Origin: a virus | Reading direction: 5' to 3' (one strand) | Virus record (IMG/VR): IMGVR_UViG_3300048582_000269 | Location: 1 to 46,824 of that record | Length of the DNA: 46,824 nucleotides | Part shown: positions 1 through 46,824 of the stretch, one piece after another | Layout: every line of letters begins with the position of its first letter | Position numbering within the stretch: position 1 is the stretch's first letter | The notes under the pieces: model-generated | Seen by the model: the letters and a program-made list of their open reading frames with translations, nothing else | What the model was told of the DNA's origin: nothing | Databases searched by the model: none | Translations under genes and position numbers: made by a program

Positions 1-32
1 GGACAATAGATGTCCCATCTCCCTAAAAAATA
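1..32. repeat. Terminal direct repeat, copy 1 (circular-closure overlap)
   Basis: ggacaatagatgtcccatctccctaaaaaata is identical (32/32) to 46793-46824. Confidence 0.95.
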
Positions 33-11353: not shown

Positions 11354-11972
11354 TAATGTAAACTTAGAAGACATTTACCGTTTCATGGAAACCGGTAACC
11401 CGGACAATGCTCCAGTTGAAATTGTGGCTTATTTGGAAGCTCTCACGCGAGTGCACGGAATGCTTTTAAGAATAGATAAGTTTGGAAGCAGAGAAGCCGT
11501 TATAAAGCACCTCGTGGTTTCAGACAAACTTTCTCGACTCAAAGCTTCGCAATTATGTAGCGAGGCGATTGAATATTTTTATGTAGATAAAGAAGTTTCT
11601 AAAAAAGCCTGGGCAAATTTTTACGCCAATATAGTTGACCAAGAAATTAACTTTCTCCGATTAACCAAAAAAGACGGTCAAGATTCTAAACGAGTAGCAG
11701 AGCTTGCAAAAATTGCAGCCGAAATGCGAGGAGTTTATAATGAAGACAAGGAGGAACTGCCGGCAGAACTCTTCCAAAAACCGGTTGTTATTTACACGAC
11801 CGATATTTCCGATTTAGGTTTGCCAAAAGTAGACCGAAACCGAATTAAAGAAATGATTGATACCAAGTTTGGCCAATTGACTGAAAAAGAACGCCAACGA
11901 CTGTATCAAGAAGCCGACGTAATCCCATTTAAAGCACTACCGAATGAGCAAGAGGACCCGCGTAAATCTTGA
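11334..11972 (+). CDS. Hypothetical protein (packaging module)
   Basis: 212-aa ORF that overlaps both neighbours. Confidence 0.55.
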   Translation: MDTMLIDNVNLEDIYRFMETGNPDNAPVEIVAYLEALTRVHGMLLRIDKFGSREAVIKHLVVSDKLSRLKASQLCSEAIEYFYVDKEVSKKAWANFYANIVDQEINFLRLTKKDGQDSKRVAELAKIAAEMRGVYNEDKEELPAELFQKPVVIYTTDISDLGLPKVDRNRIKEMIDTKFGQLTEKERQRLYQEADVIPFKALPNEQEDPRKS

Positions 11973-13650
11973 TGATAAAGATGTCGATTTGCGATTTGCT
12001 ACGAAGGCAAAAGTGCTAATTGATTTGATTGCTCCACAAAATCTATTCTTCATTGGAGGTAGAGCTACCGCAAAAACATCGGATATCATTGCCGAGCGTT
12101 CCAAAGCAATTATATACGATATGCCTCGTAGTTATCAATTATTTGTTTCTGATACGTATCAAAACGCATTGACCAACGTTCTACCTGCACTAATTGAAGG
12201 ATGGGAACGAAAAGGATGGCGAGAAGGTATTCACTTTGTCACAGATAAGCGTCCGAACTACGGGAAAAACTTTATCATGCCTTATAAACCTGCAATTAGC
12301 TTCAAACATACCATTTCAGTATTTAACGGAACATTTTTCAATTTAGGTTCGCTTGATCAACCATCAGGTTTGGCAGGTTCTTCGTATCAACACAGATACG
12401 GTGACGAAGCCCGATTATTGAAAAAGAAAAAACTAGACCGTTCCTCCCCTGCTTTGCGTGGTGAGTTTGCGAGCTTTGGTCACTCGGTGTACTACATGGG
12501 GAATACATTTACTACCGATATGCCCAATCTAACGCTTGGTGATGACGATTGGATTTTGAATATGGAGAAGGAAATGGATTTGGAGCAAATAGAATTGGCT
12601 TTGCAAGCGGCACTCGTTTTGAATGACATTAAAAGAGAAATGATTGCCAACGAACAAGCGGGAATCATCAGCGAACGAGCACGTTTGGAAAAAGCCTACC
12701 GAAGCTGGAACGAGATTTGGATAAGAGCTCGCAAAGATTCCACTTTCTTTTATGCAGTTTCATCGTTGGTCAATTTAGATATATTGACGGACGGTTATTT
12801 CAAATCGGTTTTAAAAGCTTTGGGACCGGAAGAATTTAAAACGGCTATTCTTTCGTTTAAAATTCAAATTTCTAAAGGCGAAAAGTTTTATTATAACTTG
12901 AGCGATCATCATTATTTTGAAGATGGAGTAGATAATTCCTATTTTGATAGGTTTTCATTGCGTGACGATATTGTTCCCAGTTCGTTATCCTTACGCTACA
13001 TTGATCATAATGCAAAGTTAGAATGTGGTGTTGATTTTGGAGATATGTGTTCGATGGTTGTGGGACAACAGCGAGGCGTTAACTTATACGCATTGAAGGA
13101 GTTTTTTACATTAGCTCCCGAAAATCAGATACATTTAGGATTGAAATTCAGAGAATTTTTCAAGGATCATAAACACAAAGTTCTCGACATGTATTATGAC
13201 CGTTCCGGAAATCAAAATTCTAAAACCAAACGCGATTGGGCATCAGCCATCAAAGAAGCGATAGAATTTCATCACGGCAAGAGCACAGGATGGGTAGTAA
13301 ATTTAATGAGTCAGAATCAAGCCACCATCCTTCAGGAAGAAGAATATAATTTTGCGGGGAAATTGATGTCGGGAAATGTTCCGGGATTGCCACATTTAAA
13401 AATCGACCGTTTTCGTTGCAAACATTTGAAATCGTCGTTGGAGCTTACCAAAACCTTAGTAAAAACAAACAGGCTTGGGTCTAGAACCATACACAAAGAT
13501 AAATCCTCCGAAAAGCTGCCGTTAGAATCACGACCGTTGTATTCAACGAATTTTAGTGATGCTTTTAAATATTGGATTTATCGAGCTTCATTCGTAGATA
13601 AGGCGAATCCTTATTCGGCTTATCAAGGATATGACCCTGGAGTGATATAG
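11944..13650 (+). CDS. terL: Terminase large subunit
   Basis: 568 aa with a deviant Walker A (FIGGRATAKTS) and a Walker B-like YGDEARLL. Size and two-domain layout are typical of TerL. Confidence 0.85.
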   Translation: MSKRTRVNLDDKDVDLRFATKAKVLIDLIAPQNLFFIGGRATAKTSDIIAERSKAIIYDMPRSYQLFVSDTYQNALTNVLPALIEGWERKGWREGIHFVTDKRPNYGKNFIMPYKPAISFKHTISVFNGTFFNLGSLDQPSGLAGSSYQHRYGDEARLLKKKKLDRSSPALRGEFASFGHSVYYMGNTFTTDMPNLTLGDDDWILNMEKEMDLEQIELALQAALVLNDIKREMIANEQAGIISERARLEKAYRSWNEIWIRARKDSTFFYAVSSLVNLDILTDGYFKSVLKALGPEEFKTAILSFKIQISKGEKFYYNLSDHHYFEDGVDNSYFDRFSLRDDIVPSSLSLRYIDHNAKLECGVDFGDMCSMVVGQQRGVNLYALKEFFTLAPENQIHLGLKFREFFKDHKHKVLDMYYDRSGNQNSKTKRDWASAIKEAIEFHHGKSTGWVVNLMSQNQATILQEEEYNFAGKLMSGNVPGLPHLKIDRFRCKHLKSSLELTKTLVKTNRLGSRTIHKDKSSEKLPLESRPLYSTNFSDAFKYWIYRASFVDKANPYSAYQGYDPGVI

Positions 13651-16287: not shown

Positions 16288-17676
16288 ATGCATATAGAAT
16301 TTATGGGTAGAGATGCCATCGTTCAAACTCCTGAAGTAGCCTTTACCTACCAAGTTGCTGAAACACCAAGAGAGTTTGATAAACTAAGAGGCACATCAAA
16401 CACATTGAATTGGGACAATCTTAATGACTATTTAGGGGACTACGTTATATTGCCTTATGGTTCAAACAACGATTTACCGGATATTATTAAAGAAGTAGTT
16501 AAGAATAACTACATTGCTCCTGGTTTATTGAATAGAAAGACTGAGTTACTATGGGGATTAGGTCCTCGTCTATACAGAGAGAAGCTAGAGAACAACAAAA
16601 TCATACGTCAGTGGGTAGATGATAAGGAAGTACAGAAATGGCTAGAATCCTTTGATTACGAAAACTACCTATTGAGCTCCTCTGAAGATTACCAACATCT
16701 TCAAGGTACGTTTACTAAGATATACCTAAACAAAGGTACATTAGTTGGCAAACCTCCTAAGATATCCAAGCTCGAGCATATCGCTCCAGATAAAGCTAGG
16801 TTAGCATTATTACGCACCAAGAAAGTAAAAGACACTCCTACACATTGTGTTATATCAGATTGGAATTTCAGCCATATATCAGCAATAGCCGATTCAAAGG
16901 TTTATCCTTTGTTTGACTATAAGGATCCTTTTTCTAGACCTAACTCAATAATGTATAGCAACAAGTACTCATTCTGTACAGATTACTATACAATACCGGA
17001 TATCTATGGTTCTCTTGAATGGTTAAATAGGTCTACATCTGTTCCTCTTATTTTCAAAGCATTATCAAAAAACAGCATTAATCTTAAATATCATATCATT
17101 TCGCCTGCGAAATTTTGGGATAAGAAAAAAGCAGAAATGATGGAAAGATGTTCTTTAAAAAATGTACAATATACCGAAGAGATGTTCCTTGCCTATCAAA
17201 AAGAATTCCTTGAAAAAATAGGCAAAGTATTATCAGGAGAAGAAAACACAGGTAAATACCTTCACACAGTTAAAGAACTAACTGTCGATGGAACCAACCT
17301 ACTAGAGCACCAATGGGAAGTTAAAGTAATCGACCAAAACATCAAAGATTTTGTCGAGGCTCAAATCAAGATTTCTCAACGTGCTGACAGAGCTGTAGCA
17401 TCAGGTATTTCCTTGCATTCCGCTTTAGGAAACATGTCAGAAACAGGAAAAGTTGATTCAGGTTCAGAACAACACTACGCTCTGATCAGTTACCTAAACA
17501 CCGGTATTGATATTCAAGAAATGATTATCACCAAGCCATTGAACTACGCTATCAAAGCCAATTTCCCCGACTCAGGTCTAAAAATAGGCTTCTATCACAA
17601 TGTACCGGAAAAACAAGAAGATGTTTCGCCATCCAATCGTTCAGCAAACAATTCACCATTAACACCGAAAGAATAA
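16288..17676 (+). CDS. Portal protein candidate
   Basis: 462 aa, the first large ORF of the block that follows TerL. The call rests on size and position only. Confidence 0.45.
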   Translation: MHIEFMGRDAIVQTPEVAFTYQVAETPREFDKLRGTSNTLNWDNLNDYLGDYVILPYGSNNDLPDIIKEVVKNNYIAPGLLNRKTELLWGLGPRLYREKLENNKIIRQWVDDKEVQKWLESFDYENYLLSSSEDYQHLQGTFTKIYLNKGTLVGKPPKISKLEHIAPDKARLALLRTKKVKDTPTHCVISDWNFSHISAIADSKVYPLFDYKDPFSRPNSIMYSNKYSFCTDYYTIPDIYGSLEWLNRSTSVPLIFKALSKNSINLKYHIISPAKFWDKKKAEMMERCSLKNVQYTEEMFLAYQKEFLEKIGKVLSGEENTGKYLHTVKELTVDGTNLLEHQWEVKVIDQNIKDFVEAQIKISQRADRAVASGISLHSALGNMSETGKVDSGSEQHYALISYLNTGIDIQEMIITKPLNYAIKANFPDSGLKIGFYHNVPEKQEDVSPSNRSANNSPLTPKE

Positions 17677-22437: not shown

Positions 22438-22468
22438 TTTTACTTTTTAGTAAAAATAGTTATATTTG
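22438..22468 (+). promoter_or_regulatory. Operator palindrome TTTTACT-TTTT-AGTAAAA plus -7 box TATATTTG (rightward KilA-N promoter)
   Basis: Palindrome at 22438-22455 and a TAnnTTTG match at 22461-22468. The same palindrome occurs twice in the int-proximal switch region. Confidence 0.55.
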
Positions 22469-22579: not shown

Positions 22580-23215
22580 ATGAGTAAACCGGAATCAAAA
22601 GCATTAGAGTTCATCTATCAAGATGTTCAAATTCATTTTTTATTATCTCAAGGAGATAACGTGATGGTTAACGCTACAGAAATGGCTCAGCTGTTTAATC
22701 AAGAAACAAGATACTTTTTAAGACTTGATTCTACTAAAAATTTCGCAAAAGCAATGTTGAGAGAAAAATTTAATCGTGCAGATTACTCCAATTTTGACCC
22801 TTTTTTTGGTAAAAAGAAACAAAATAACTCAGATAATCGTGCAGAATTGCACGATTATATCAAAGAGAATATTTACTATTCTCAAAAAAAGGGTGGAACT
22901 TACTTATGTAGCGAGTTAGCTCTTAAATTTGCAGCTTGGCTTGACCCTGATTTTGATTTATGGGTACAAAGAACAATATATAGTATATTGTTTAGTGAAT
23001 ATTACATGATTCATAAAAAGAAGGTAATTGAAATTGAAGAAACCAAAAACAAAATCGAACAATTAAAATTTAAAATCAGAAACAAAATAGCTACAGAAAA
23101 CACAGCTATTGAACTGTTAGACTTACAAGATTTACTTTTAAAATTGATGAATGAGAAAAGAAATGCAATTAATAGTCAAGTAAGAAATATTCAATATTCA
23201 TTTTTTGAAGATTAA
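22580..23215 (+). CDS. KilA-N domain protein
   Basis: VNATEMAQLF...FLRLDSTKNF...GGTYLCSELALKFAAWLDPDFDLWV matches the KilA-N/Bro-N pattern. The C-terminus is coiled-coil. Confidence 0.75.
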   Translation: MSKPESKALEFIYQDVQIHFLLSQGDNVMVNATEMAQLFNQETRYFLRLDSTKNFAKAMLREKFNRADYSNFDPFFGKKKQNNSDNRAELHDYIKENIYYSQKKGGTYLCSELALKFAAWLDPDFDLWVQRTIYSILFSEYYMIHKKKVIEIEETKNKIEQLKFKIRNKIATENTAIELLDLQDLLLKLMNEKRNAINSQVRNIQYSFFED

Positions 23216-30365: not shown

Positions 30366-32175
30366 TTTTGAACTAGATTTATCCTCGTTGCAATTAATAG
30401 ACAACGAGGAAAATCCTTGGTTTCTCGACGAGATTCCATTGCGTTTCACTTTTCCGTTTGAGTTAGATCTAACCGATGAAAACGAACAAAACTTTGGTTT
30501 CATTTCTTCCTACCAAACTTCGCCCGAAACAATCTATCCATTGGTTTACGTTCACGGCAACCAAATGGAGCAAGCAGAGTTGGAGCTGGAGGAACTCAAC
30601 GACAAAAAACTGCAAGCCACTTTATCTTTTGGCTTGGAGAAATTGCCGTCTTGGGATAAAAAACTTTCCGAACTTCCTTTGGATAAGTTTGATTTAGATG
30701 GAGAAACCATCTATGAACATGCCGAAGATGTGATAGCTCTCACCTATCCGGCTGTCAATTACAACTTCCCGCAAGTGCATGTAGAAAATTTTGATACAGA
30801 AAATGATTTATATGCATCATTCCCCGGACGAATAAACAATACCGTTGCAGGTTCGTTTATTCCAAACACTATTGATCCAATTGATTATAGTTCAAACAAT
30901 CCAACCATCATTCAACCACTTCCCTACTGGTTGCATGTGTTGCAAAAAGGTTTTGAAGCTTCGGGACTAACCCTCGAGGGTGAAATTTTATCAGACGAGC
31001 GTCTTTTAAAAAAATGCTTGTATACCAGCAAAGAATATTTCACAAAAAGAGATAATCCTGAATATAGTGCATTTCTTCTCGGAATCGACGAAGTAGAACA
31101 AATAGGAAGCTCTCCCTCCTGGGGTACGATGGGTAAATATGAAGTGATTGTCGATATCGCACAATGGGGAAAGTTCAATATTCTTGGAAACATTAAACGC
31201 TTGGTAGTCGCAAACAATCCATTTCCACCAACCACAATCAAGTTTAATGATGTGGTTATCTGGTCACAATCAGGATATGGTCAAAGCTATTTTGTTGATA
31301 CCACATTCGACACTACAGAATTTGGTCCCAACGAATTAAAAATAACAATCTATTCTCGTATTCCAATCAATCCAAATCTGGTTGATTTAACACAGTTGAT
31401 TATTTGTGATTTACAAATATTGGCTCTTGTATTATATGATGCTCCCGACAGTTTGGTTCCAACCATTATAAACGAAGATAAAATTGATTTAACCAAAGCA
31501 GTTCCCGACATGACCTTTGGCGATTTTGTAAAAGTCATTCTCAATTGGTACAATTACGATTACGATATTCAAGATGGAATTGTTACCATGAATAAAATTG
31601 AAAGCCAAATGAATTACAATAGTGCATTTGATTTATCCATGTTTGAAGTGCGTTCGCCTATACGCCGATTCAAAAAAGGTTATTCATTTGAGTTGAAATT
31701 TCAAGAGGTAGAAACTGATTACGAATACCTTCCGGTGTTTCAATCAGCCACAGAAATTCTTACTGCAGGTTATAAAAAAGATGACAAAACCAAAACAATC
31801 GAAGTAAATGCTTTGCCTTTGCCAAATCTTTTACGTGATGGTATTACAACAGCTCACGCTTTTGCAACCGATGAAAGTAAACCTTTTGCGGTATTTTATA
31901 GTGGTTTAATTGATGGTTTGAATACAACCGAAAGTCCACAAGCTATGATGATTCCGCAAGTGCATGAAACCAATTGGCGACGATGGTTTACTAATAGAAT
32001 TGATGCACAACAATTCACATGGAATTTTAAATCGTGGTTTGATGATATCTCCGGTTTAAAAGCAAAAGGCAAATGCTTTGCTTATGGCCGCTACCACATT
32101 ATAAAAAAAATCCAGCGTACAGAATTGTCGCCGGATCTATTTGAAGTTGAAATTGAAACCGAAACATTAAAATAA
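30343..32175 (+). CDS. Tail-associated/baseplate hub protein candidate
   Basis: 610-aa ORF, second large gene after the tape measure. Its stop overlaps the convergent integrase stop by 9 nt. Confidence 0.5.
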   Translation: MRKLIHTNFELDLSSLQLIDNEENPWFLDEIPLRFTFPFELDLTDENEQNFGFISSYQTSPETIYPLVYVHGNQMEQAELELEELNDKKLQATLSFGLEKLPSWDKKLSELPLDKFDLDGETIYEHAEDVIALTYPAVNYNFPQVHVENFDTENDLYASFPGRINNTVAGSFIPNTIDPIDYSSNNPTIIQPLPYWLHVLQKGFEASGLTLEGEILSDERLLKKCLYTSKEYFTKRDNPEYSAFLLGIDEVEQIGSSPSWGTMGKYEVIVDIAQWGKFNILGNIKRLVVANNPFPPTTIKFNDVVIWSQSGYGQSYFVDTTFDTTEFGPNELKITIYSRIPINPNLVDLTQLIICDLQILALVLYDAPDSLVPTIINEDKIDLTKAVPDMTFGDFVKVILNWYNYDYDIQDGIVTMNKIESQMNYNSAFDLSMFEVRSPIRRFKKGYSFELKFQEVETDYEYLPVFQSATEILTAGYKKDDKTKTIEVNALPLPNLLRDGITTAHAFATDESKPFAVFYSGLIDGLNTTESPQAMMIPQVHETNWRRWFTNRIDAQQFTWNFKSWFDDISGLKAKGKCFAYGRYHIIKKIQRTELSPDLFEVEIETETLK

Positions 32176-33291
32176 ATTATCCAAAAGGAAAATTTCTTTA
32201 TTGGCTTCGCTTTGTAAAATATGTACATATACCATTGTTTGATTGATTGATGAATGCCCTAAAAGCTTTTGCAACATCTCTACCTTTCCACCCATTCGCA
32301 AAAAGAGAGTTGCAAAAGTATGTCGGGCTACGTGAAACGAAACTTTTTTAGTTATTTTCAGGTTGGGCATAATCTTTTTTAATTCATCATTCATGTGCTG
32401 ATCTGTGAACTTGGTGACAAATAAATTAGGAAGCGTTTCTAAAATTCTACGTGCGTTTTGATTTAAAACAATGCTTTGATTCTTATTTGTTTTCTGAGAA
32501 ACAAAGGAAATTTCATTTTCTAGCAAGTCTTTTCTTTTCAATGCTTGAATATCAGAAATTCTCAAACCTGTAAAACACGAAAACAAAAAGTAACCTAGAA
32601 TCATTCGGTGACTCGTGTTTACGTATTCCAGATTTATAAAATCAAAACAACGTCGAACTTCTTCTTTCGACAAATAGGTTCGGTTACCTTTTGTGGAACC
32701 GGTGGTTATATCGTCTACATTCACAGCTAATTTAATACCTGCTCTACTTGCCAATCTTAGAAACTTTTTGATACTCGCAATATTACTATTAATTGTGGTG
32801 CTTTGATTTCCTAGTGAAGAAAGATAGTTTCTGTAACGATCAAACCAACCCATGGTTATCTCCGAAAAAGCAATGTCCGGATTATACTTTTTTACTTTTT
32901 CCATCACTGCTTTATGTCGTGCATAGGTTCCTGGTTCCATCGATGCTCGAGCATCTTCAAGAGCATGTTTAAAAAATGCACAAAAATTTACGCGGCTCAT
33001 GTTTTCAGACAGTTCCTTTTTTAAAAGAGCCGGTGTAATAACCTTTTCCTGCAGCCGATACTCAATTTTTATTTTATTGACTTTAGCCTCGATTGCTTCC
33101 AGAACCAGGTTAATGTCATTTGAATCGGCATTTTCTCCCTTTACCCTCTTTTTGTCACCCAACCAAATTTGGGGGTCAACATAAATTTTGGTATGAATAC
33201 GCTCGCGTTGCTTGCTACCACTACACATTAAATATATCGGCGATTTTCCGTCGATTATTTTGTCTTTACGAAGTAAAAAATAGGTTCTCAT
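32167..33291 (-). CDS. int: Tyrosine recombinase (phage integrase)
   Basis: TGLRISD (Arg I), HVARHTFAT (HxxR) and LLGHSSINQTMVYVH (His/Tyr) motifs. The start at MRTYFLLRKDK matches the typical Bacteroidota integrase N-terminus. The ORF stays open upstream to 33405. Confidence 0.9.
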   Translation of the reverse strand: MRTYFLLRKDKIIDGKSPIYLMCSGSKQRERIHTKIYVDPQIWLGDKKRVKGENADSNDINLVLEAIEAKVNKIKIEYRLQEKVITPALLKKELSENMSRVNFCAFFKHALEDARASMEPGTYARHKAVMEKVKKYNPDIAFSEITMGWFDRYRNYLSSLGNQSTTINSNIASIKKFLRLASRAGIKLAVNVDDITTGSTKGNRTYLSKEEVRRCFDFINLEYVNTSHRMILGYFLFSCFTGLRISDIQALKRKDLLENEISFVSQKTNKNQSIVLNQNARRILETLPNLFVTKFTDQHMNDELKKIMPNLKITKKVSFHVARHTFATLFLRMGGKVEMLQKLLGHSSINQTMVYVHILQSEANKEIFLLDNLF

Positions 33292-33329
33292 TGACACATA
33301 AATTTTTTGGGTGTCAACCAGGGTGTCAA
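33291..33329. promoter_or_regulatory. GGGTGTCAA direct repeats and an inverted partial copy just upstream of the int start
   Basis: gggtgtcaa at 33309-33317 and 33321-33329, ttgacac at 33291-33297, and a third gggtgtcaa at 33505-33513. Confidence 0.45.
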
Positions 33330-33509
33330 AAATCCTTTCAGAAGGGGTTAAATACATAGTCAAACGTTTTTGGGTAAAACAATTAAAGCACATCAAATCA
33401 ACCATTTACGGTGTTTTGAGTGTGCTTCTTTTGACTTTGTAATCTAAATATGTGACCCAGTCAGGAACAAAAACAACACTGATTAACAGTAAGTTACATC
33501 AATCGGGTG

Positions 33510-33824
33510 TCAATTGCGTGACAAATTAAGTTTTAATTCACGCAATCGTTCCTCCAATTCTTCAATAAGAACAAGGTTCCTTGTCTTATATTCTTCCGCT
33601 GCTTCGGCGACAGAATCCATCGTCAGATCGTCCGATATTAAAAAGTTAATATCAGCATCCGGAAAGTACTTCTTAATTTTTTGAATGAAGGTTTTTGAAA
33701 TGTTATCTGAGTTCAGATACCTTGAAATCAAACTCTCACTATAACCGTCCATTATTTTGGATATCTGACGGTTATCGAGATTCTTCTCTTCAAAAAAATG
33801 TTTGGCTTTTGCTGAAAATCCCAT
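33510..33824 (-). CDS. XRE/cI-like HTH repressor candidate
   Basis: 104 aa with an N-terminal HTH (LDNRQISKIMDGYSESLISRYLN). Transcribed divergently from the early rightward operon. Confidence 0.6.
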   Translation of the reverse strand: MGFSAKAKHFFEEKNLDNRQISKIMDGYSESLISRYLNSDNISKTFIQKIKKYFPDADINFLISDDLTMDSVAEAAEEYKTRNLVLIEELEERLRELKLNLSRN

Positions 33825-33851
33825 ACTGATTAATTTAGAAACATTTTAAAT

Positions 33852-33915
33852 TATACTTTTTAGTAAAACTTTTTATCATTTGTTTTACTTTTTAGTAAAA
33901 CTTTTATATACATTT
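33852..33915. promoter_or_regulatory. Lysis-lysogeny switch region: two operator copies and the rightward -7 box TACATTTG
   Basis: TACTTTTTAGTAAAACTTTT occurs at 33854-33873 and 33886-33905, 32 bp apart. A TAnnTTTG match lies at 33908-33915, 21 nt before the ATG at 33936. Confidence 0.6.
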
Positions 33916-33935
33916 GTGACAGATATAACAAACCT

Positions 33936-34223
33936 ATGACAAATATAAAAGAAAAAAACACAAACGGAGATGTGTATTCGCACATTAACAAGGCATTCGA
34001 TATAATCGACAAGTTCCTTCCTAAAATGTATGTGGAGAAAGTTTTAGAAAAACTTCCTGAGAATACCAAAATCACTTCAGCAATAATTAGAAATGTTAGA
34101 AACAGAACTCAACCAAATCTTACTTCAAGATTGGAGGTTGTAAATGCACTTGTCGAGGTTGCATTAGAAAATCAAAAGTACCAGGAAAAGCTAGGAAGCC
34201 TAGTTACCGAAAAAAACACTTAA
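33936..34223 (+). CDS. Early regulator in the Cro position
   Basis: 95 aa, the first rightward gene after the switch region. HTH-like segment TKITSAIIRNVRNRTQ. Confidence 0.45.
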   Translation: MTNIKEKNTNGDVYSHINKAFDIIDKFLPKMYVEKVLEKLPENTKITSAIIRNVRNRTQPNLTSRLEVVNALVEVALENQKYQEKLGSLVTEKNT

Positions 34224-35074: not shown

Positions 35075-37954
35075 ATGAGCTACGTAAAAGACGAACAAAT
35101 TTTTGACAGAACCAATGGAGGTCTCGACATCATTCTGTTTTATTATCCAAATGCGGCAAAAGTAGTTCATAAAGCGGCACGCCAATTCAAAATTCGCGAA
35201 TCCGAAAAAACGGCTTCTGCTTCCTTGAAACAATTGCAAGGTGGTGTTTGGGTTGTCACCGATTTTGGCGGCGATCAAAAAAGCAGAAACGGAATACAAG
35301 TATGTGCCTTTGAAGAAAACATCGCCTATGGTGAAGCTTGCCAATTGTTGGGAGCTCGCTACGGTATTGAAGGTGCAAAAATGCAAATTCACAAACCGGT
35401 GATTGAAAAACGTTCTTTGAAATCAAGTGAAACAAAAGGCGAATATAAATTCGAATTCAACGAAAAACTTTCCGATGCCGAACTAAAACTTTTAGGACCG
35501 CGAATCAACCAGGACACTTGCAACAAATATAATTTGAAGTCATGCAAAAGATTTACCTATTGCAAGGATAACGAAGCAATTGTAACAACGGCTACGGAAG
35601 AATATCCTATCCTTGTTTTTGACTTTGGTTCTTGGCAAAAAATCTATCAACCGAATTCGTTTGAAAAGCAATACCGCTTTAGATATGCCGGTACAAAACC
35701 CGAACGCCATGTTTGGGGATTGGAAGAAATCGAAAAGGAATTTAAACGCAGAAAGAAAAAACAAGAGGAAGAAGCTTATGATGATAGCGTTATTGATGAT
35801 GACGATGACACCAAAAAGAAAAAGAAATTCGACCCACGTTTAGACCGTATTTATATTGTTTCCGGTGGTTCTGATGGCATTAACCTGCGTTCGTTTGAAC
35901 AATATCCAATATGGTTCAATTCTGAAAGCGAGCATTTGAATTGGGACGAATACAAGCAACTGAAAGTTTGGACAAAGGAAATCATCTACATTGCCGACCT
36001 TGACAATACAGGCGTAAAACAAGCCGTAGAATTAGGTTTGAAATTCATGGACATCAAAATCCTTTGGTTGCCAAACAAATTGAAAACCTTCCGTGACAAA
36101 CGTGGAAATCCTCGCAAGGATTTTAAAGATTATGTAGAAGTATTTTATTCAGCCGAAAATAAGTCGTTTATAAACGGATTTAATAAACTTTCAGACAATG
36201 CTTTACCTTTTCAGTTCTGGACAGAGCATTACAATGCAACCACCAAAAAAACGCAGTACAATCTTTCCAACACGCGACTGTATCATTTCCTTTCGAACCT
36301 TGGATTTGGCAGATACGAAGGCGAAAACTTTAAAGATGGTTTCATCTACGTAAAAAAAGACGGTTCAATTATTCGAGTATTGGAACCATACAAAATTGAA
36401 AACTTTGTACATGAGTTCCTGGAAGAGCGAGGTATGAGTCCTGACCTGCGAGACTATGTTTACAAGTCGCCACAATTGGGTGACAGATCATTGTCGAAGC
36501 TTCCGAAGTTGACCATTGATTTTACCGATGCTGATAGAGATACGCAGTATTGGTTTTTCAACAAAAAAGTTTGGAAAATCACAGCTGAAGAAATTACCGA
36601 ATACAAACAAGGCGAAGTAGACAAGTTTGTTTGGGAAGATAAAATCATCGATTTCGAAATTCGTTTGGAAGACCCGCATTTTGATATTCATAAAGACGAA
36701 TCCGGAAACTATGATATCAAAATCAATGTAGATGATAATATGTTCTTGAACTATTTAATCAACACATCGCGGGTGCATTGGCGTAAAGAATTGGAAGATT
36801 ATTTTGAAACCAAAACACCAAAGGAAGCCGAAGAGTATTTCGCAAAGCATCAGTTCAATATAGAAGGACCAAATTTAACCGAAGATGAACAACACGAGCA
36901 GAAGCTCCACCTGATCAATAAGATTTATAGCATTGGCTATTTGCTCCACAAATACAAAAACTACAACAAACCTTGGGCAGTTTTTGCAATGGACAACAAA
37001 GTGTCAGATTTGGGAGAGAGCCACGGTGGAACCGGTAAATCGTTGTGTTATTCGTTCTTGAACAAAATTTTGAAACGCCGGGTATATCTAAAAGGTAGAG
37101 ACCCAAAGTTGACACAAAACGACTTTATCTATCATGAGGTGACAGAAGATACAGACTATGTGTTGATAGATGATGCTACGCAGTACTTGAACTTTGATTT
37201 CTTCTTTTCAGAAATCACCGGTTCATTGAAAGTGAACCCGAAAAACGGTAGTCCGTTTGAGATTCCTTTCGAAAAGTCTCCAAAGTTTTGTTTCACTTCC
37301 AACTTTGCATTGCGAAATGTAGATCCATCAACAGCTCGTCGTTTGTTGCTATCGGTTTTCTCCGATTATTATCATTCCAATGATGATGACGAATACAAAC
37401 AAGTGCGAAAAGTATCAGACGATTTTGGAGGTAAAAACTTGTTTACCGATTTCGATTGGAAACAATACAACTACTTCTACAACTTCTGCAGCCAAGCCAT
37501 TAGGTTTTACTTATCGGTTTCCGAAAAGATGAATCCGCCAATGGACAACGTAACCAAACGTCAACTGCAGGTTGAAATGGGTGATGCATTCATGGGATGG
37601 GCTGATGCATTTTTTGCTACACAGCACCAGGAAGGAACTTACAAATATGTAAACGATTTTGTTTCCAAAGAATTTGCCTTTGAAGAATTTATCAAAGCAA
37701 CATCGCAAAAGAAATGGAGCCAAAACAAGTTCAAAAAAGCATTGAAAGCCTATTGCACTTGGAACGAATGGGTGTTTAATCCAAAAGAGCACCACAATTC
37801 GGGAAGCCGAATTATTAAAACCATTGACGGAAAAAGTGTGGAAGTATTCTACTTAGACACCAAAAATGCCGAGCAAATATCAAAAGTAGAACAAATAATT
37901 CAAGACGAATTGCCCGACGGATTATTTGACGATGAGAAAACCATATTTGATTAA
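35075..37954 (+). CDS. Bifunctional primase-helicase (Toprim-like region plus a D5/P4-type P-loop NTPase)
   Basis: 959 aa. IYIADLDNTG is a Toprim-like DxD. Walker A is GESHGGTGKSL and Walker B is DYVLIDDA. Confidence 0.8.
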   Translation: MSYVKDEQIFDRTNGGLDIILFYYPNAAKVVHKAARQFKIRESEKTASASLKQLQGGVWVVTDFGGDQKSRNGIQVCAFEENIAYGEACQLLGARYGIEGAKMQIHKPVIEKRSLKSSETKGEYKFEFNEKLSDAELKLLGPRINQDTCNKYNLKSCKRFTYCKDNEAIVTTATEEYPILVFDFGSWQKIYQPNSFEKQYRFRYAGTKPERHVWGLEEIEKEFKRRKKKQEEEAYDDSVIDDDDDTKKKKKFDPRLDRIYIVSGGSDGINLRSFEQYPIWFNSESEHLNWDEYKQLKVWTKEIIYIADLDNTGVKQAVELGLKFMDIKILWLPNKLKTFRDKRGNPRKDFKDYVEVFYSAENKSFINGFNKLSDNALPFQFWTEHYNATTKKTQYNLSNTRLYHFLSNLGFGRYEGENFKDGFIYVKKDGSIIRVLEPYKIENFVHEFLEERGMSPDLRDYVYKSPQLGDRSLSKLPKLTIDFTDADRDTQYWFFNKKVWKITAEEITEYKQGEVDKFVWEDKIIDFEIRLEDPHFDIHKDESGNYDIKINVDDNMFLNYLINTSRVHWRKELEDYFETKTPKEAEEYFAKHQFNIEGPNLTEDEQHEQKLHLINKIYSIGYLLHKYKNYNKPWAVFAMDNKVSDLGESHGGTGKSLCYSFLNKILKRRVYLKGRDPKLTQNDFIYHEVTEDTDYVLIDDATQYLNFDFFFSEITGSLKVNPKNGSPFEIPFEKSPKFCFTSNFALRNVDPSTARRLLLSVFSDYYHSNDDDEYKQVRKVSDDFGGKNLFTDFDWKQYNYFYNFCSQAIRFYLSVSEKMNPPMDNVTKRQLQVEMGDAFMGWADAFFATQHQEGTYKYVNDFVSKEFAFEEFIKATSQKKWSQNKFKKALKAYCTWNEWVFNPKEHHNSGSRIIKTIDGKSVEVFYLDTKNAEQISKVEQIIQDELPDGLFDDEKTIFD

Positions 37955-41587: not shown

Positions 41588-41866
41588 ATGAAAATCACAG
41601 CAACAATCAAACGCATCAAGCCGGTGCAAACCGTAGGAACCAACAACTTCAAAGTTCAAAAAATTCACGTTGTCACAGAAGAGCAATATAGCCAAACGTT
41701 GGAGATCCAATTTGTCCAGGATAAAACAAGCCTTCTGGATAACTTCAAAGAAGGCGACAAAGTAACCATCGACGTGAACCTCAAAGGTCGTGAAGCTACA
41801 AAAGCCGATGGAGAGATAGCAGTATTCAACACCATCGATGGTTGGAAGATTGAGAAAGCAGTATAA
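41588..41866 (+). CDS. DUF3127-like OB-fold protein
   Basis: MKITATIKRIKPVQTVG...FKVQKIHVVTEEQYSQTLEIQF...GDKVTIDVNLKGRE...DGWKIEK follows the DUF3127 pattern common in Bacteroidota. Confidence 0.6.
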   Translation: MKITATIKRIKPVQTVGTNNFKVQKIHVVTEEQYSQTLEIQFVQDKTSLLDNFKEGDKVTIDVNLKGREATKADGEIAVFNTIDGWKIEKAV

Positions 41867-41890
41867 TACCACAAAACAGTTAACCCATTA

Positions 41891-41915
41891 AACCTCTCCT
41901 TGAGAGGTTTTTTTA
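41891..41915 (+). terminator. Rho-independent terminator ending the early operon
   Basis: aacctctc-ctt-gagaggtt followed by a T-run. Confidence 0.8.
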
Positions 41916-42034
41916 TGTCTTATTGTCACGTTCCGGAGCTGCTTTATTACAAAATTCCTTTCTCTGAACGACACACCTCAAAAGCACGTTTTTTCCGACA
42001 CGTTTTTCCCCTACCCCCCATCATAAAAATAAAC

Positions 42035-42279
42035 CACTAAAAAAGTGTAATTTTGTAATCTCTGGCGGTATGCCTTGAAAACACTAGGAAAATAGATTAC
42101 AATTAATTTGTAATTTTGTAATTGAAATTACAAAAAAAATGTAATTTAAAAAGAGCGTACAAAAATACATTTCCTTAAACAGGCAAAATTACAATTTCAC
42201 TGTACGACCAAAACCCCTTATTTTATAGTACTTCGCAACGCATAAAAAGTGAAAATTACAGAATTACACTTTTTTAGTG
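42035..42279. repeat. 245-bp segment bounded by perfect 18-bp inverted repeats and filled with TGTAAT/ATTACA iterons
   Basis: cactaaaaaagtgtaatt (42035-42052) is the exact reverse complement of aattacacttttttagtg (42262-42279). The 14-mer TGTAATTTTGTAAT occurs at 42046-42059 and 42109-42122. Confidence 0.85.
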
Positions 42280-42306
42280 AACTTTTGACTTATTTCAAAA
42301 TACTAC

Positions 42307-42323
42307 TTTTACTTTTTAGTACA
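42307..42323. promoter_or_regulatory. Imperfect copy of the switch-region operator (TTTTACTTTTTAGTACA)
   Basis: 15 of 17 positions match TTTTACTTTTTAGTAAA. Lies 50 nt upstream of the fibre operon start. Confidence 0.4.
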
Positions 42324-42372
42324 TTTTATTTGACTATTTTGTAATATTTTTTTATATCTTCGTGTAAACTTT

Positions 42373-43281
42373 TTGCCAATGGATGCAGTTTATAAGAAGG
42401 TTCCCCAAAACCCTTATCCATGTAAAATCTATATTGATTTTTCCGGGCAAATGGTTGCCTCTAATAGTCAAGGCATTGCGAGTTTCTACAATTCAAAGTC
42501 GGTTGATGCTACTTGGTTTGAAATATATTCCGGAAAAGCCGCTATCGGTTTTGGAGAGGAATCAGCAGAAACTGCCGCCGGAACCATCTATACTCAAAAA
42601 CTAGAAATACGCTTTCCATCAAACGACTCATTGCGAGCTGTGCGATTAGATTACCTCCGAAAAGCTAAGTTCATTGCTATAAAACTCACAGACAAAAGAT
42701 ACCTGGTGTTAGGCAGAAATGACTATCTGCAAAACAAAAAACCAAGTATCAGCACAGAAAGTAATGAAAAGCTCACTGCTGTAACCTTTGGAAATAGATC
42801 ATTATTTCCTGCAGCGTTTTTGGATAGTGAAATAAGTGGTACAATTGTCAACCTTAATAATTCAAACCTAACCGGATTGATCAACGGTATCAATACTATT
42901 TTTTTAACAGCTACAGAGTTCCTTCCAGGATCAACAAAGTTGTATAGAAACGGAGTTCGCCAAAAGCTAGGAATTGATTATACAGAAAGTACCACGGTGG
43001 GAGTAGTGTTTACCATAGCTCCACTCACTGGAGACATTTTAGTAATTGATTATCAAACCGGAAACATCGTGAGCAATGTTACTTTAATTGGCGTTCGCAA
43101 CGGAATCAATGTGAATTTCACTACACCATCGCCTTTTGCTATCGGACAAACAAATGTTTTCAGAAACGGAGTATTACTACAATTAGGAATTGATTATTAC
43201 GAATCAGGAAGTAGCACTATTGTTTTTGTGGTACCTCCGGTAGATACAGATCTATTAGTAATTGACTATCAAATGAATTAA
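42373..43281 (+). CDS. Virion protein with two tandem ~65-aa Ig-like repeats (tail tube or fibre-base candidate)
   Basis: 302 aa with a TTG start at 42373 (ATG at 42379). The repeats are NGINTIF...LYRNGVRQKLGIDY...ILVIDYQ and NGINVNF...VFRNGVLLQLGIDY...LLVIDYQ. Confidence 0.55.
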   Translation: MPMDAVYKKVPQNPYPCKIYIDFSGQMVASNSQGIASFYNSKSVDATWFEIYSGKAAIGFGEESAETAAGTIYTQKLEIRFPSNDSLRAVRLDYLRKAKFIAIKLTDKRYLVLGRNDYLQNKKPSISTESNEKLTAVTFGNRSLFPAAFLDSEISGTIVNLNNSNLTGLINGINTIFLTATEFLPGSTKLYRNGVRQKLGIDYTESTTVGVVFTIAPLTGDILVIDYQTGNIVSNVTLIGVRNGINVNFTTPSPFAIGQTNVFRNGVLLQLGIDYYESGSSTIVFVVPPVDTDLLVIDYQMN

Positions 43282-43845: not shown

Positions 43846-45381
43846 ATGGCCACAGTAAAAAAAGTAACAGTAACAGCTGCAAGTGTAGTAACAAATGACA
43901 CGCTTGCCGGATATAATATTTATTCAAATATTGATGGAAAACTCAACACATCGGTTGTGCCTCCTGCAACAGCCAATGCGGGTGTTGATTATTCACTATC
44001 AGATGGCGAGATTCATAGCATAATAGCTAAGCCCGTTGGAACTGTAAACGGCGAATTTACAGCTGTTTCAAGTACTCCAGTAGTAGTTGATTTAACCGGT
44101 GCAGGAGCTCCCGTTGTTACATTTGGAGAGGTTGGAACAATCAATGCAACTACGGTTGTTTTGACTGCAAACGAACCTTTGGTGGTTATGAACCTTTCTG
44201 GGGCAAATGGATTCACAATTGATAACTCGACAGAGGGAACTGCAATCACAGTTACCAATGTGCAGGTTCAATTATCAGACCCAACAAAAATAATTTTAAC
44301 TGTAACCGCAGGATTAAAAGATTCGTCTGAAGGTATTGTTTCAGTTGATTATATTGGAACAGCAGTTGAAGGAACTGATGGTAATCCGTTAGCTTCTATT
44401 TCAAACTTGACGCTTGTAAATAATATTCCGCCACCAGCTTTAGAATTGTTCAATTTTATTAATGCGGCTTCGGCTCCAAACGAAGCTAATGCAAACACAG
44501 GATTCTCAGCCGCAACTTTAGTACATGCTGAAATTATTGGAACTCCAACAGTTTTGCCACAGCATGGTGCGAGATTCTTAGAAGTAAAATCTGCAAACGC
44601 AGCTTTGGGTGGTGGTGATAATTTGAATTTAGCGGCAAACCTATTAACAGCTATTCCGCAAGCGGGTGATTTATACACTTTGAGTTGTAAATACTTCATC
44701 CCTACTTCAAACACCGATACAGGGCAGAAAATTATTGGTACGGTAGCCTCTTTAAATGAAAACGGAACAATGATGGCCGACTTCGATTTGTCATTAACAG
44801 GTGCAAAAGGACAATGGAACACAGCTTCATTAGCTAATTTAAGAATAGCTTCCAAAGGAACAGATATTCGTTTTGCTTTTAGAGGTGGTGCTGCGTCTGC
44901 AATTAACCAACCGGTTTATTACGATGAAATTAAATTAACAAAAACACATCAAGCTTCATCGCTTTTTAACACCTATTCGGCAACAGAAGCCGGTGGTAAA
45001 AATAGAGTAGGAACATTAACTTATACTTGGACTGGTGGTGTTGGTGTGTTAAGTGCGATCACAGATTCAAATGGACCAAGTGGAGCTCCTGGAGAAACTT
45101 ACTTGGAATGGTTAGACACAGGTGCAACTTTTAACACCGGACGAACATTGAGTTTAGGTTCAGGAACTCGCTTAATTAAATGTAAAATAAAAATATCAGG
45201 AACAGGTGCATTTAGAATTGGCGGACGTAGAAGATTAAATGCAGCCGATTATGCAACATGGCAAGATGTTGAATTTGTAAGTGCTAATGGCTTTCAATTT
45301 GTTGCACTTCAGGCAGCCAATGGATCAAGACTATTCATCTCTGATATCGAAATGGGAACTGTAATAGATACGGCAGTATAA
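43846..45381 (+). CDS. Receptor-binding/fibre protein with an Ig-like domain and two CBM-like jelly-roll segments
   Basis: 511 aa. The Ig-like segment is VVLTANEPL...ILTVTAGL...VSVDY. Two C-terminal segments end in YYDEIKLTK and LFISDIEMG, as in carbohydrate-binding modules. Confidence 0.5.
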   Translation: MATVKKVTVTAASVVTNDTLAGYNIYSNIDGKLNTSVVPPATANAGVDYSLSDGEIHSIIAKPVGTVNGEFTAVSSTPVVVDLTGAGAPVVTFGEVGTINATTVVLTANEPLVVMNLSGANGFTIDNSTEGTAITVTNVQVQLSDPTKIILTVTAGLKDSSEGIVSVDYIGTAVEGTDGNPLASISNLTLVNNIPPPALELFNFINAASAPNEANANTGFSAATLVHAEIIGTPTVLPQHGARFLEVKSANAALGGGDNLNLAANLLTAIPQAGDLYTLSCKYFIPTSNTDTGQKIIGTVASLNENGTMMADFDLSLTGAKGQWNTASLANLRIASKGTDIRFAFRGGAASAINQPVYYDEIKLTKTHQASSLFNTYSATEAGGKNRVGTLTYTWTGGVGVLSAITDSNGPSGAPGETYLEWLDTGATFNTGRTLSLGSGTRLIKCKIKISGTGAFRIGGRRRLNAADYATWQDVEFVSANGFQFVALQAANGSRLFISDIEMGTVIDTAV

Positions 45382-46818
45382 ATGAAAATATTTATAGCAT
45401 CATTACCGGCTAGCAGTGGAACTGTAACGCCTCCGCCTTTAGAGGCAGAGGCGACAGCTCCAACTATTGAGGTTGTAAATCCTCTTGAAAGCATAGTTGG
45501 TTGTATGAACCCGATGGCTATTAACTATAATCCATTTGCAAATGTAAGCGACGGAAGCTGTGTTTTGGAAAGTGCTGTGATGGAGGAAGACGATGTTGTT
45601 TACATACCATTAATTGGTCACTCTCAAATTGCCGGAAAAGGATGGACCAATGCACCCGGAGTTCCAACAGGTGATTACTTGCAAGATGCCGATAAGATTT
45701 TAAACGATATGCAGTATGCTAATGGTGCGAGTTCATTCGTATTATACAATCCTGCAACACTTGGAATAGATCATGGGCGTGAAGCTTATTTAAATTTGAA
45801 CTGGAAGGATTATATTGATTCAACAAATGGCGAACCTCTTTACATAAGTAAACACGTTTTGGTGGGTGCTGCAAGGTTTTCGCAATTGATGATTGGAGGT
45901 CGCTACTTTGAGCAAGCTTTGAATCAAATTCGTCCAAAAATTAATAACCTCGTTGCGTCGGGTAAAAAAGTAACCATATACTTCATTTTCGATATGTGGG
46001 CTGATGATGCGATATACGGCGAACGACCCATGTATGATGTATATCATTCGCATTGGTGTTTGGCGAGAGCTTTAGGCTTACAGCAAATCAATGCTAATTT
46101 GACAACTTCGGCAAACATGGTGGCGTGGTACCCATTTATGAATAATGCATTTATAAATTATGCAGAGGCAGATCCAACGCGAAGAAGTACAGCGGTTGCA
46201 TCACCATCTACACCAACGGTTGACGGAGCACATTGGAGTTCATTCGCTTTGCGTGACTTTGCGTTGGAACATTTAGCAGCTATTGAATTCCAACCAAAAA
46301 TGAAAATCAATTGGACGGTTCCAACTATTTCAGGTTTGACAATGGCATTTAAAGAAGTGCCCAATCAAAGAGGCTTGGGCTTTTCAGTTGAATGGGATGT
46401 GCCTTGCGAATGTCGTGTGTTTACCGACCAAGAGCTTTTATACGAAAAGGAAATATCAATATTCTCAATTGATATTCGATTGATGAGATACGGCTTTGTA
46501 ACATTAATTGGAAACCTAACAGGTATGACCCGATTTGTAGCACCATACACCGGAACCTGTGTTGAATTTGAATTGGTTGACAAGTTTGTTAGCACTTTGA
46601 ATTTTATTGATTTACGTGGTAATGCATTAATAGCCGGAAATCCTGCTTTCATTGTAAGTTACAGTAACGATTACAACGTAATGAAATTGGCACAGGGATC
46701 AGTTTCAAACGGCACACTAAAAATAGCCGGAAGCGTGAATGGCTTAACAGCAGCTTCTGCTTCATATTATGCAACTTTAATTTCAAGAGGTTGGACAATA
46801 GATGTCCCATCTCCCTAA
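45382..46818 (+). CDS. Fibre-associated protein with an SGNH/SASA-like esterase signature
   Basis: IPLIGHSQIAGKG resembles the GQSNMxG block and TVDGAHWS resembles the DxxH block of sialate O-acetylesterase-type hydrolases. The N-terminal ATAPTIEVVNP motif is shared with the 43283-43834 protein. Confidence 0.4.
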   Translation: MKIFIASLPASSGTVTPPPLEAEATAPTIEVVNPLESIVGCMNPMAINYNPFANVSDGSCVLESAVMEEDDVVYIPLIGHSQIAGKGWTNAPGVPTGDYLQDADKILNDMQYANGASSFVLYNPATLGIDHGREAYLNLNWKDYIDSTNGEPLYISKHVLVGAARFSQLMIGGRYFEQALNQIRPKINNLVASGKKVTIYFIFDMWADDAIYGERPMYDVYHSHWCLARALGLQQINANLTTSANMVAWYPFMNNAFINYAEADPTRRSTAVASPSTPTVDGAHWSSFALRDFALEHLAAIEFQPKMKINWTVPTISGLTMAFKEVPNQRGLGFSVEWDVPCECRVFTDQELLYEKEISIFSIDIRLMRYGFVTLIGNLTGMTRFVAPYTGTCVEFELVDKFVSTLNFIDLRGNALIAGNPAFIVSYSNDYNVMKLAQGSVSNGTLKIAGSVNGLTAASASYYATLISRGWTIDVPSP

Positions 46819-46824
46819 AAAATA
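46793..46824. repeat. Terminal direct repeat, copy 2 (circular-closure overlap)
   Basis: Identical to 1-32. Contains the stop codon of the 45382-46818 ORF. Confidence 0.95.

Follow-up and report, generated by a model that had tools for sequence, protein, structure and literature searches.

A conserved iteron array between the early and late operons of a temperate Flavobacteriia phage is a candidate replication origin

What is the role of a 457-bp gap, crowded with short repeats, between the early and the late operons of a temperate phage? The gap (positions 41916-42372, here called the hub) belongs to the IMG/VR virus record IMGVR_UViG_3300048582_000269, whose full stretch of 46,824 nucleotides is referred to as the window. 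An earlier note on this DNA had offered two readings, a replication origin and an invertible promoter that would switch the operon downstream. Our comparative analysis and structure-based annotation best support the former, and the latter was not supported, as the hub was found in one polarity only and with no invertase gene nearby. We propose that positions 42008-42279 are an iteron-type phage replication origin for a self-loading primase-helicase of the superfamily 3 (SF3) type, and we put the probability of this reading at roughly 0.65.

Anatomy of the repeats and their conservation

The hub contains 12 copies of TGTAAT or its complement ATTACA, 11 of them within 300 bp. The number expected from 5000 dinucleotide-preserving shuffles of the region was 0.59 +/- 0.76 (maximum 5), and only 54 copies occur in all 46.8 kb of the window (0.35 per 300 bp). 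The earlier note had listed 11 copies with correct coordinates, and had overlooked only the ATTACA at 41946. The 14-mer TGTAATTTTGTAAT was confirmed at 42046 and 42109, as was its inverted copy with one mismatch at 42255, and the extended iteron site has the consensus (A/T)-rich-T-TGTAAT-TT. The perfect 18-bp inverted repeats that had been described as framing the cluster are exact and extend even further, to 25 nt with 24 of 25 matches (42035-42059 and 42255-42279). This inverted repeat is unique within the window and had no match in the shuffles, and its 25-nt arms enclose 195 bp. The claim that the gap holds no credible open reading frame (ORF) was also borne out: its ORFs are of 31-46 amino acids only, and none of them is conserved.

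The left and right double iterons of the window are separated by 209 bp, and the internal iteron spacings of 31 and 63 bp correspond to whole numbers of helical turns. Between them, the central iteron cluster forms a palindrome with 24-nt arms (83% complementary, 8 nt between them) and includes an A8 tract (42132-42139). Positions 42093-42152 are the lowest-GC 60-bp stretch in the entire genome (12% GC; about 38% for the window as a whole). The C4..C4+ block on the early side of the array occurs once in the whole genome with both strands counted.

The same element is present in more than 30 related phage and prophage contigs, which were recovered by protein-based look-ups from independent assemblies. 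They include a Logan contig whose neighbouring protein is 77% identical to that of the window (L095), six contigs in which this protein is 61% identical (L097-L102), L130, L012 and 17 further IMG/VR contigs, as well as prophages in the isolate genomes of Flavobacterium facile (L125; GCA_036321945.1), Flavobacterium sp. PLA-1-15 (L131; GCA_049060005.1) and Maribacter flavus (L132). The window and the L098 group have almost the same hub core (42046-42161), even though their flanking proteins share only 61% identity.

We compared seven lineages (the window, L012, the L098 group, L125, L130, L131 and L132). The invariant columns of the alignment are the hexamers and the A-tracts, whereas the spacers diverge. 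The left-arm 14-mer is invariant in all seven lineages (as TGTAAC in L132), and so is the ATTACAAAAAAA(A/T)TGTAA(T/C) of the central cluster across the aligned lineages. From the early side, the shared architecture begins with the C-rich block (CCCC..CCCC), which is followed after about 15-20 nt by an A-run and two iterons in 8-bp register; it continues with a GC-richer spacer of about 36 bp, the AT-rich palindromic cluster and one or two single sites, and ends with two iterons of opposite polarity (three in L132) and a T-run. The central cluster follows the pattern ATTACA-N7-TGTAAT-NN-TGTAAT-N4-ATTACA-A7-TGTAAT. The spacer sequence is identical in the window and the L098 group, and different in L130, L125, L131, L012 and L132. 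Despite the diverged interior, the outer iteron pairs are 207-209 bp apart (about 20 helical turns) in the window and six lineages, and an inverted repeat of 19-24 nt is retained in most lineages.

Nearly all lineages, irrespective of their iteron or primase type, have before the array a C-rich block of the form CCCC-N2-3-CCCC(CC), whose bottom strand is G-rich; equivalents were found in L012, L026, L070, L075, L125, L127, L131, L132 and most of L133-L148. L070 and L075 have four G-runs on the bottom strand of this block, where a G-quadruplex could form. A priming site and a structural element are both possibilities for the block.

The iteron sequence differs from lineage to lineage on the same architecture. 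In the Maribacter prophage all 10-11 copies are TGTAAC, and other lineages carry TTGTAA (L070), TCTGTA (L026), TGGACT (L057), TCTCAA (L017) or TGTGGTA (L127-L129). Such a concerted change at all copies is what a sequence-specific binding protein evolving along with its sites would leave, and not what RNA pairing would. The single-strand-binding protein (SSB) encoded next to the hub was considered as the specificity factor and rejected: the SSB of L127 is 75% identical to that of the window, yet the iteron of L127 is TGTGGTA.

A further array, composed of ACTTCC/GGAAGT repeats in a triple and an inverted triple 190 bp apart, was seen in L046 (6100-6420; also in L051 and L060). It lies in a divergent intergenic region by a VRR-NUC gene, in a locus that encodes a Prim-Pol + DUF3987 protein, and may be an analogous origin.

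Linkage to primase-helicase genes and the case for an origin

The candidate initiator is rep959, the 959-amino-acid product of an early-operon gene. Its matches to Pfam (DUF5906, E = 5.7e-4, sub-threshold) and to PHROGs (phrog_28855) are both weak signals, and sequence searches against the PDB and NCBIfam gave no match; Rep homologs number more than 500, and those at 67-71% identity are named 'primase-helicase family protein' by NCBI. An AlphaFold2 model built from 36 homologs (mean pLDDT 84.3) had as its best PDB match the primase-helicase of SaPI5, an island of the Staphylococcus aureus pathogenicity island (SaPI) kind (7OLA; E = 3.6e-9, probability 1.00, TM score 0.56 on the target), followed by poxvirus D5/E5, African swine fever virus (ASFV) PrimPol and NrS-1. 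The C-terminus of the model is a helix-helix-beta-hairpin domain (about residues 862-944), which we infer to be a winged helix.

All array-bearing loci that reach far enough encode a large primase or primase-helicase. The types found by the arrays are the rep959 family (29-75% identity), DnaG-zinc-ribbon or DnaG-primase fusions of 1016-1090 amino acids, and, in L014, a 733-amino-acid BT4734_N + PriCT_2 + VapE/DUF5906 protein. In L014 the array starts 2 bp past the stop codon of the primase-helicase gene and is followed by VRR-NUC and SSB genes, which places it within the replication module. In L017 it lies about 60 bp after the gene of a 1064-amino-acid DnaG-type protein, and the first late gene follows only 2 kb further on; in L134 it lies about 230 bp past the end of the gene of the Rep homolog. 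In L131 the array has moron cassettes on its flanks, and 1.3 kb separate it from the late operon.

Three features by which an iteron-type origin is recognised were found together: short repeats in both orientations, an AT-rich region flanked by them, and linkage to an initiator-type gene, which in the window is 4 kb away. As for the mechanism, we infer that rep959 binds the iterons and that the hub acts as an origin. The protein would contact the TGTAAT hexamers, probably via its C-terminal winged-helix domain. Set about 20 helical turns from each other, the two opposed iteron pairs would be presented on the same face of the DNA, and they flank what is predicted to be the least stable DNA in the genome, the AT-rich palindromic cluster. 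Oppositely oriented helicase rings would assemble at this cluster and melt the duplex, and the DUF3127 SSB encoded just upstream may coat the opened DNA.

Similar arrangements are known. In SaPI origins, 6-12 penta- or hexanucleotide iterons lie immediately downstream of rep; their centre is rich in AT and has two or more iterons to either side, in opposite directions, and the C-terminal winged helix of Rep recognises the iterons; pri and rep are fused in some of the islands, and 7OLA is reported in the same paper (PMC9371898). The hub is like the origins of SaPI and of phage-inducible chromosomal islands (PICI) in its hexanucleotide iterons, AT-rich centre, opposed pairs and element-specific iteron sequence, in its position downstream of (pri-)rep (immediately so in L014, L017 and L134), and in the predicted fold of rep959. 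It differs from them in belonging to a full temperate siphophage of Flavobacteriia and not to a satellite, in the 4 kb between rep and the array, in the strict phasing of arms 208 bp apart and in the conserved C-rich block before the array; moreover, rep959 has no detectable sequence similarity to SaPI Reps.

In phage P4, the alpha protein, a multidomain primase-helicase-initiator, recognises short iterons in both orientations at ori and crr. The hub likewise combines short iterons in both orientations with a multidomain primase-helicase as candidate initiator, whereas P4 has two separated cis elements with octamer iterons and the hub is one compact array with no second copy in the genome. In the origins bound by SV40 large T and papillomavirus E1, inverted pairs of short elements by AT-rich DNA nucleate two opposed hexamers. 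The hub has inverted element pairs by AT-rich DNA as well, and rep959 falls in the D5/SF3 structural neighbourhood; these origins differ in being eukaryotic, in having a much more compact core and in their unrelated DNA-binding domains. With the confidence given at the outset, we regard the hub as an iteron origin of the known self-loading primase-helicase replicon kind, here in Flavobacteriia temperate phages.

Several observations weigh against this interpretation. In the window and most close relatives, some 4 kb separate rep from the hub further downstream, and the late operon follows the hub immediately; the hub may have a regulatory role there. The seven iteron variants found across the lineages do not cleanly track overall Rep similarity: L063 (41% Rep identity) and L075 (29%) retain TGTAAT, whereas L026 (41%) has TCTGTA. 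Sliding-window identity of nine Rep homologs against iteron type revealed no discriminating sub-domain of Rep. The TGTAAT array of L014 accompanies its VapE-type primase-helicase, which has no BLASTP similarity to rep959. The minimum of the detrended cumulative GC skew (43,979, about 1.7 kb from the hub) is weak evidence for an origin, and the skew is confounded because nearly all genes lie on one strand.

A full-text literature search found no description of the hub element, and to our knowledge the replication origins of Bacteroidota phages are essentially uncharted. Most notable in the proposed origin are the strict geometry of 20 turns, a C-rich block that is unique in the genome and an iteron specificity that was swapped repeatedly. 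Its signature (C-block, iteron pair, AT-rich palindrome and, about 208 bp from the first pair, a second pair in the opposite direction) would allow origins to be annotated in hundreds of Flavobacteriia phages and prophages. From the natural variants (TGTAAT, TGTAAC, TCTGTA, TGGACT and others) it could be learned how self-loading helicases of the SF3 type recognise DNA. Flavobacterium and Maribacter are difficult to work with genetically, and rep combined with the hub could serve as a minimal replicon for tools in these genera.

Other explanations of the hub

Since the hub adjoins the late operon in the window, the main rival is a late-gene enhancer, that is, an array bound by a phage transcription factor, such as the LuxR/GerE-type protein of 185 amino acids, which would activate or silence the late operon. 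In its favour, the first late gene comes immediately after the hub in the window, the L098 group, L130, L125 and several IMG/VR contigs, the early operon includes the gene for a GerE-type regulator, and the 14-mers contain matches to the -7 promoter box TAnnTTTG. The arrays of L014 and L017 are found right after the primase-helicase gene, however, within the replication module, and in L017 and L131 the first late gene is 1.3-2 kb away from the array and has a short upstream region of its own. L063 and L075 have TGTAAT arrays with no homolog of the 185-amino-acid LuxR-type protein in the DNA covered, and 10-12 sites over 250 bp in 20-turn phasing are atypical for a promoter-proximal regulator. 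We consider this explanation unlikely.

The octamers TAATTTTG (42048 and 42111) and CAAAATTA (42184) are at the positions that the earlier note had given, but its interpretation of them as promoter boxes was not sustained. The octamer TAATTTTG is incidental to the TGTAAT sequence, because lineages with other iterons lose the -7 match and keep the architecture; the box at 42184 is not conserved in relatives.

A broader reading would make the hub a looped nucleoprotein machine that couples replication initiation to the licensing of late transcription, or that inverts rarely. It would be a portable module whose DNA specificity was swapped at least seven times and which could serve several primase-helicase types (DUF5906/D5-like, VapE/BT4734-like and DnaG-fusion) in Flavobacteriia phages. 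This suggestion draws on the location of the origin beside the late operon, on an operator common to the late promoter and the lysogeny-switch region (see below), on the 20-turn spacing of the pairs and on the unique C-rich block; we hold it to be speculative and distinctly improbable.

A packaging site (cos or pac, comparable with cosB or pacL/pacR) has also to be weighed, since the small terminase subunit often recognises clustered short repeats where the late operon begins. The terminase genes of the window were recognised by none of Pfam, PHROGs and NCBIfam, which leaves their position uncertain. On the other hand, the arrays of L014, L017 and L134 lie inside or at the end of the replication module beside the primase-helicase gene, the 32-bp overlap of the circular window is arbitrary and elsewhere, with no end at the hub, and the gene after the hub encodes a conserved virion-module protein and no recognisable terminase. 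A role in packaging is therefore very unlikely.

The invertible cassette remains to be considered, in which the 25-nt repeats would be recombination sites and a flip of 42060-42254 would switch the late or host-recognition operon. The geometry is that of a typical inverton (a 25-nt inverted repeat, 24 of 25 matching, around 195 bp), -7-like boxes are present inside the hub on both strands, and the inverted repeat is kept in most lineages. Bacteroidota invertons likewise have inverted repeats around an AT-rich segment of about 200 bp, and they lie upstream of surface or host-interaction genes. We determined the polarity of the hubs from the internal A7-9 tract relative to the external C-rich block. 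All of the 19 readable hubs had the same polarity, with the tract at an offset of 72-76 from the left arm and never at the mirror position, in consensus assemblies from which a rare minority orientation would escape. L141, which has no C-block, showed the same polarity when oriented by its late genes, and all alignable relatives were collinear with the window.

The other evidence points the same way. No invertase gene was found near the hub in the window or in any relative of the TGTAAT or TGTAAC type (flanks of the window, L125, L130, L131 and L132), and the only recombinase of the window is the arm-binding integrase, 9 kb from the hub. Unlike those of invertons, the arms of the hub are paired iterons with an A-run, and such pairs recur inside; a nucleoprotein architecture accounts better than a switch for arms that stay 207-209 bp apart in most of the close lineages. 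The arm sequence changes together with all interior copies, and a T/C asymmetry between the arms is conserved in most lineages. The -7-like boxes inside belong to the iterons, with the fate described above, and the hub is away from the late operon in several relatives (1.3 kb in L131, 2 kb in L017 and inside the replication module in L014). We conclude that an inverton is highly improbable here, and that an AT-rich segment bounded by inverted repeats in Bacteroidota is not automatically one.

In the TGTGGTA lineage, a gene for a XerC/D-like tyrosine recombinase of 267 amino acids (L127, 5179-5982) immediately precedes the SSB gene and the hub, an arrangement seen in no TGTAAT lineage. Integration, dimer resolution and inversion are possible roles for it.

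Least probable of all, with a chance close to nil, is that the hub is the phage attachment site (attP) with TGTAAT arm-type sites, as its size (among the non-coding regions examined around the early and late modules it is the largest) and the arm-binding domain of the integrase might suggest, or an insertion like a miniature inverted-repeat transposable element (MITE) with the AAC flanking both arms as target duplication: attP was rejected because the hub is intact, unsplit and internal in three integrated prophages of isolate genomes (L125, L131 and L132), and a MITE is at odds with an element that is always single-copy at a syntenic position and whose flanking AAC is not kept in relatives. 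In L131 (7751-8000) and L132 (7306-7828), the junction between host and phage is directly beside the repressor-like gene on the - strand, with no integrase on that side. Since these prophage ends abut that gene, the attP of the window is probably the 105-bp gap between the integrase gene and the gene for the 104-amino-acid protein (33405-33510).

Two further candidates were rejected. A structured RNA received no support, as the hub gave no Rfam match and no tRNA; its fold z-scores (-7.4 and -7.0) were equal on both strands, as DNA palindromes would give, and RNAalifold returned a covariation term of +1.02, which is no covariation support, the hexamers being invariant and not compensated. A CI-type operator function of TGTAAT was discarded because the immunity region (33824-33936) has no TGTAAT cluster and carries TTACTTTTTAGTAA instead.

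Late promoter, flanking genes and further features of relatives

The features of the hub and of its gene context are summarized in Table 1. An exact 32-bp terminal direct repeat (window 1-32 = 46793-46824) shows that the assembly closes into a circle and that the window represents the entire genome (about 46.79 kb) of a temperate siphophage of Flavobacteriia type; its nearest database relatives are Flavobacterium phages and prophages.

Table 1. Positions of the hub elements, the late-promoter segment and the flanking genes in the window
Feature	Position	Strand	Remarks
TGTAAT hexamers	42046, 42054, 42109, 42117, 42140, 42340	+	
ATTACA hexamers	41946, 42096, 42127, 42188, 42255, 42263	-	
Conserved leader with C-rich block	41945-42034		C-rich block CCCCTACCCCCC at 42008-42019; alignable with the L098 group and L130
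Left arm	42035-42059	+	A6 run and double iteron TGTAAT-TT-TGTAAT in 8-bp register
GC-richer spacer	42060-42095		44% GC; about 50 bp from iteron to iteron; length kept, sequence variable
Central AT-rich palindromic iteron cluster	42093-42148		ATTACA 42096, TGTAAT 42109 and 42117, ATTACA 42127, TGTAAT 42140
Single interior iteron ATTACA	42188-42193	-	AATTACAA invariant in 7/7 lineages
Right arm	42255-42279	-	Inverted double iteron ATTACA-GA-ATTACA and T6 run
Operator-like near-palindrome TTACTTTTTAGTAC	42309-42322	+	In the late-promoter segment, outside the iteron array
-7-like box TATCTTCG	42355-42362	+	17 nt before the start codon
Tyrosine integrase with arm-binding domain	32167-33405	-	Early side of the hub
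Repressor-like gene, 104 amino acids		-	Adjoins the integrase gene across the 105-bp gap 33405-33510
GerE/LuxR-type regulator, 185 amino acids	34233-34790	+	Rightward early operon
rep959, 959-amino-acid primase-helicase-like protein	35075-37954	+	Early operon; candidate initiator
DUF3127 SSB gene	41588-41866	+	Last early-operon gene
Intrinsic terminator	41890-41910	+	9-bp stem, 3-nt loop, T-run; ends the early (replication) operon after the SSB gene
First late (virion-module) gene, 300 amino acids	42379-43281	+	phrog_23018 and 'virion structural protein' repeat

We read the segment to the right of the array (42280-42378) as a separate promoter of the late operon with a repressor-type operator. 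The near-palindrome TTACTTTTTAGTAC has only three other copies with at most one mismatch in the genome (22440, 33853 and 33885), all intergenic and upstream of + strand operons. Those at 33853 and 33885 lie in the divergent repressor/early promoter region, and a perfect TAnnTTTG box follows those at 22440 and 33885. The 14-bp near-palindrome TTACTTTTTAGTAA (22440-22453, 33853-33866, 33885-33898 and 42309-42322) is found in four intergenic promoter regions only; the copy at 22440-22453 precedes an operon that starts at 22580, and the copy at 42309-42322 precedes the late operon. The same pairing was seen in the prophage L125, with one copy in the immunity region and two before the first late gene (3173, 14231 and 14253). 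This distribution makes TTACTTTTTAGTAA a probable operator of the phage repressor, in which case the late operon would be repressed directly. The box TATCTTCG is a probable late promoter; at the aligned position, the L098 group has TATCTTTG and L125 has TATATTTG, both of which match TAnnTTTG perfectly.

In the early operon, about 10 small genes lie between rep959 and the SSB gene, and relatives have a terminator at the equivalent position after the operon. The start codon of the first late gene is the ATG at 42379 and not the TTG at 42373. The earlier note had called the operon downstream a fibre operon: it is a late, virion-module operon, but the label fibre was not confirmed, the first late protein matching only PHROG families of unknown function or of virion structural proteins. 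Exact-protein look-ups of the genes flanking the hub returned no record, and a related-locus search with the first late protein gave two distant matches only. Searches at the DNA level were no more productive: the 18-mer of the inverted repeat had seven single, unrelated matches in IMG/VR, all by chance, and the spacer 18-mer CTGGCGGTATGCCTTGAA had chance matches in GC-rich DNA among metagenome and viral contigs, with neither the window nor its relatives among them.

Some relatives carry additional DNA around the hub. In L097 (680-1230), L098 (1050-1557) and L099, an extra segment of about 550 bp lies between the terminator of the SSB gene and the hub, with a terminator of its own and a near-DnaA-box, TTATCCACT. 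An ORF of 112 amino acids on the - strand, which starts inside the spacer of the hub, was called in this extra segment; the window lacks it, and it probably represents either a moron or an error of the gene callers. In L131 (18162-21860), moron insertions were found on either side of the hub, namely a umuDC-like cassette (Peptidase_S24 and the Y-family polymerase IMS) and a gene for an SRAP-domain protein.

The large late proteins of the window (11944-13650, 16288-17676 and 43846-46818), whichever of them is the large terminase included, were unrecognised by Pfam, the functional families of PHROGs and NCBIfam, and the virion module of these phages is in essence without annotation. The N-terminal 150 amino acids of the first late protein are homologous to first late proteins of 162-164 amino acids in L017, L125, L130 and L131. 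In the window, the protein is a fusion in which this part is followed by two tandem domains of about 65 amino acids that match PHROG 'virion structural protein' and have the pattern NG.N..F...G....RNG....G.DY........F...P....D.L.IDYQ; in the relatives, the domain sits on the following gene instead.

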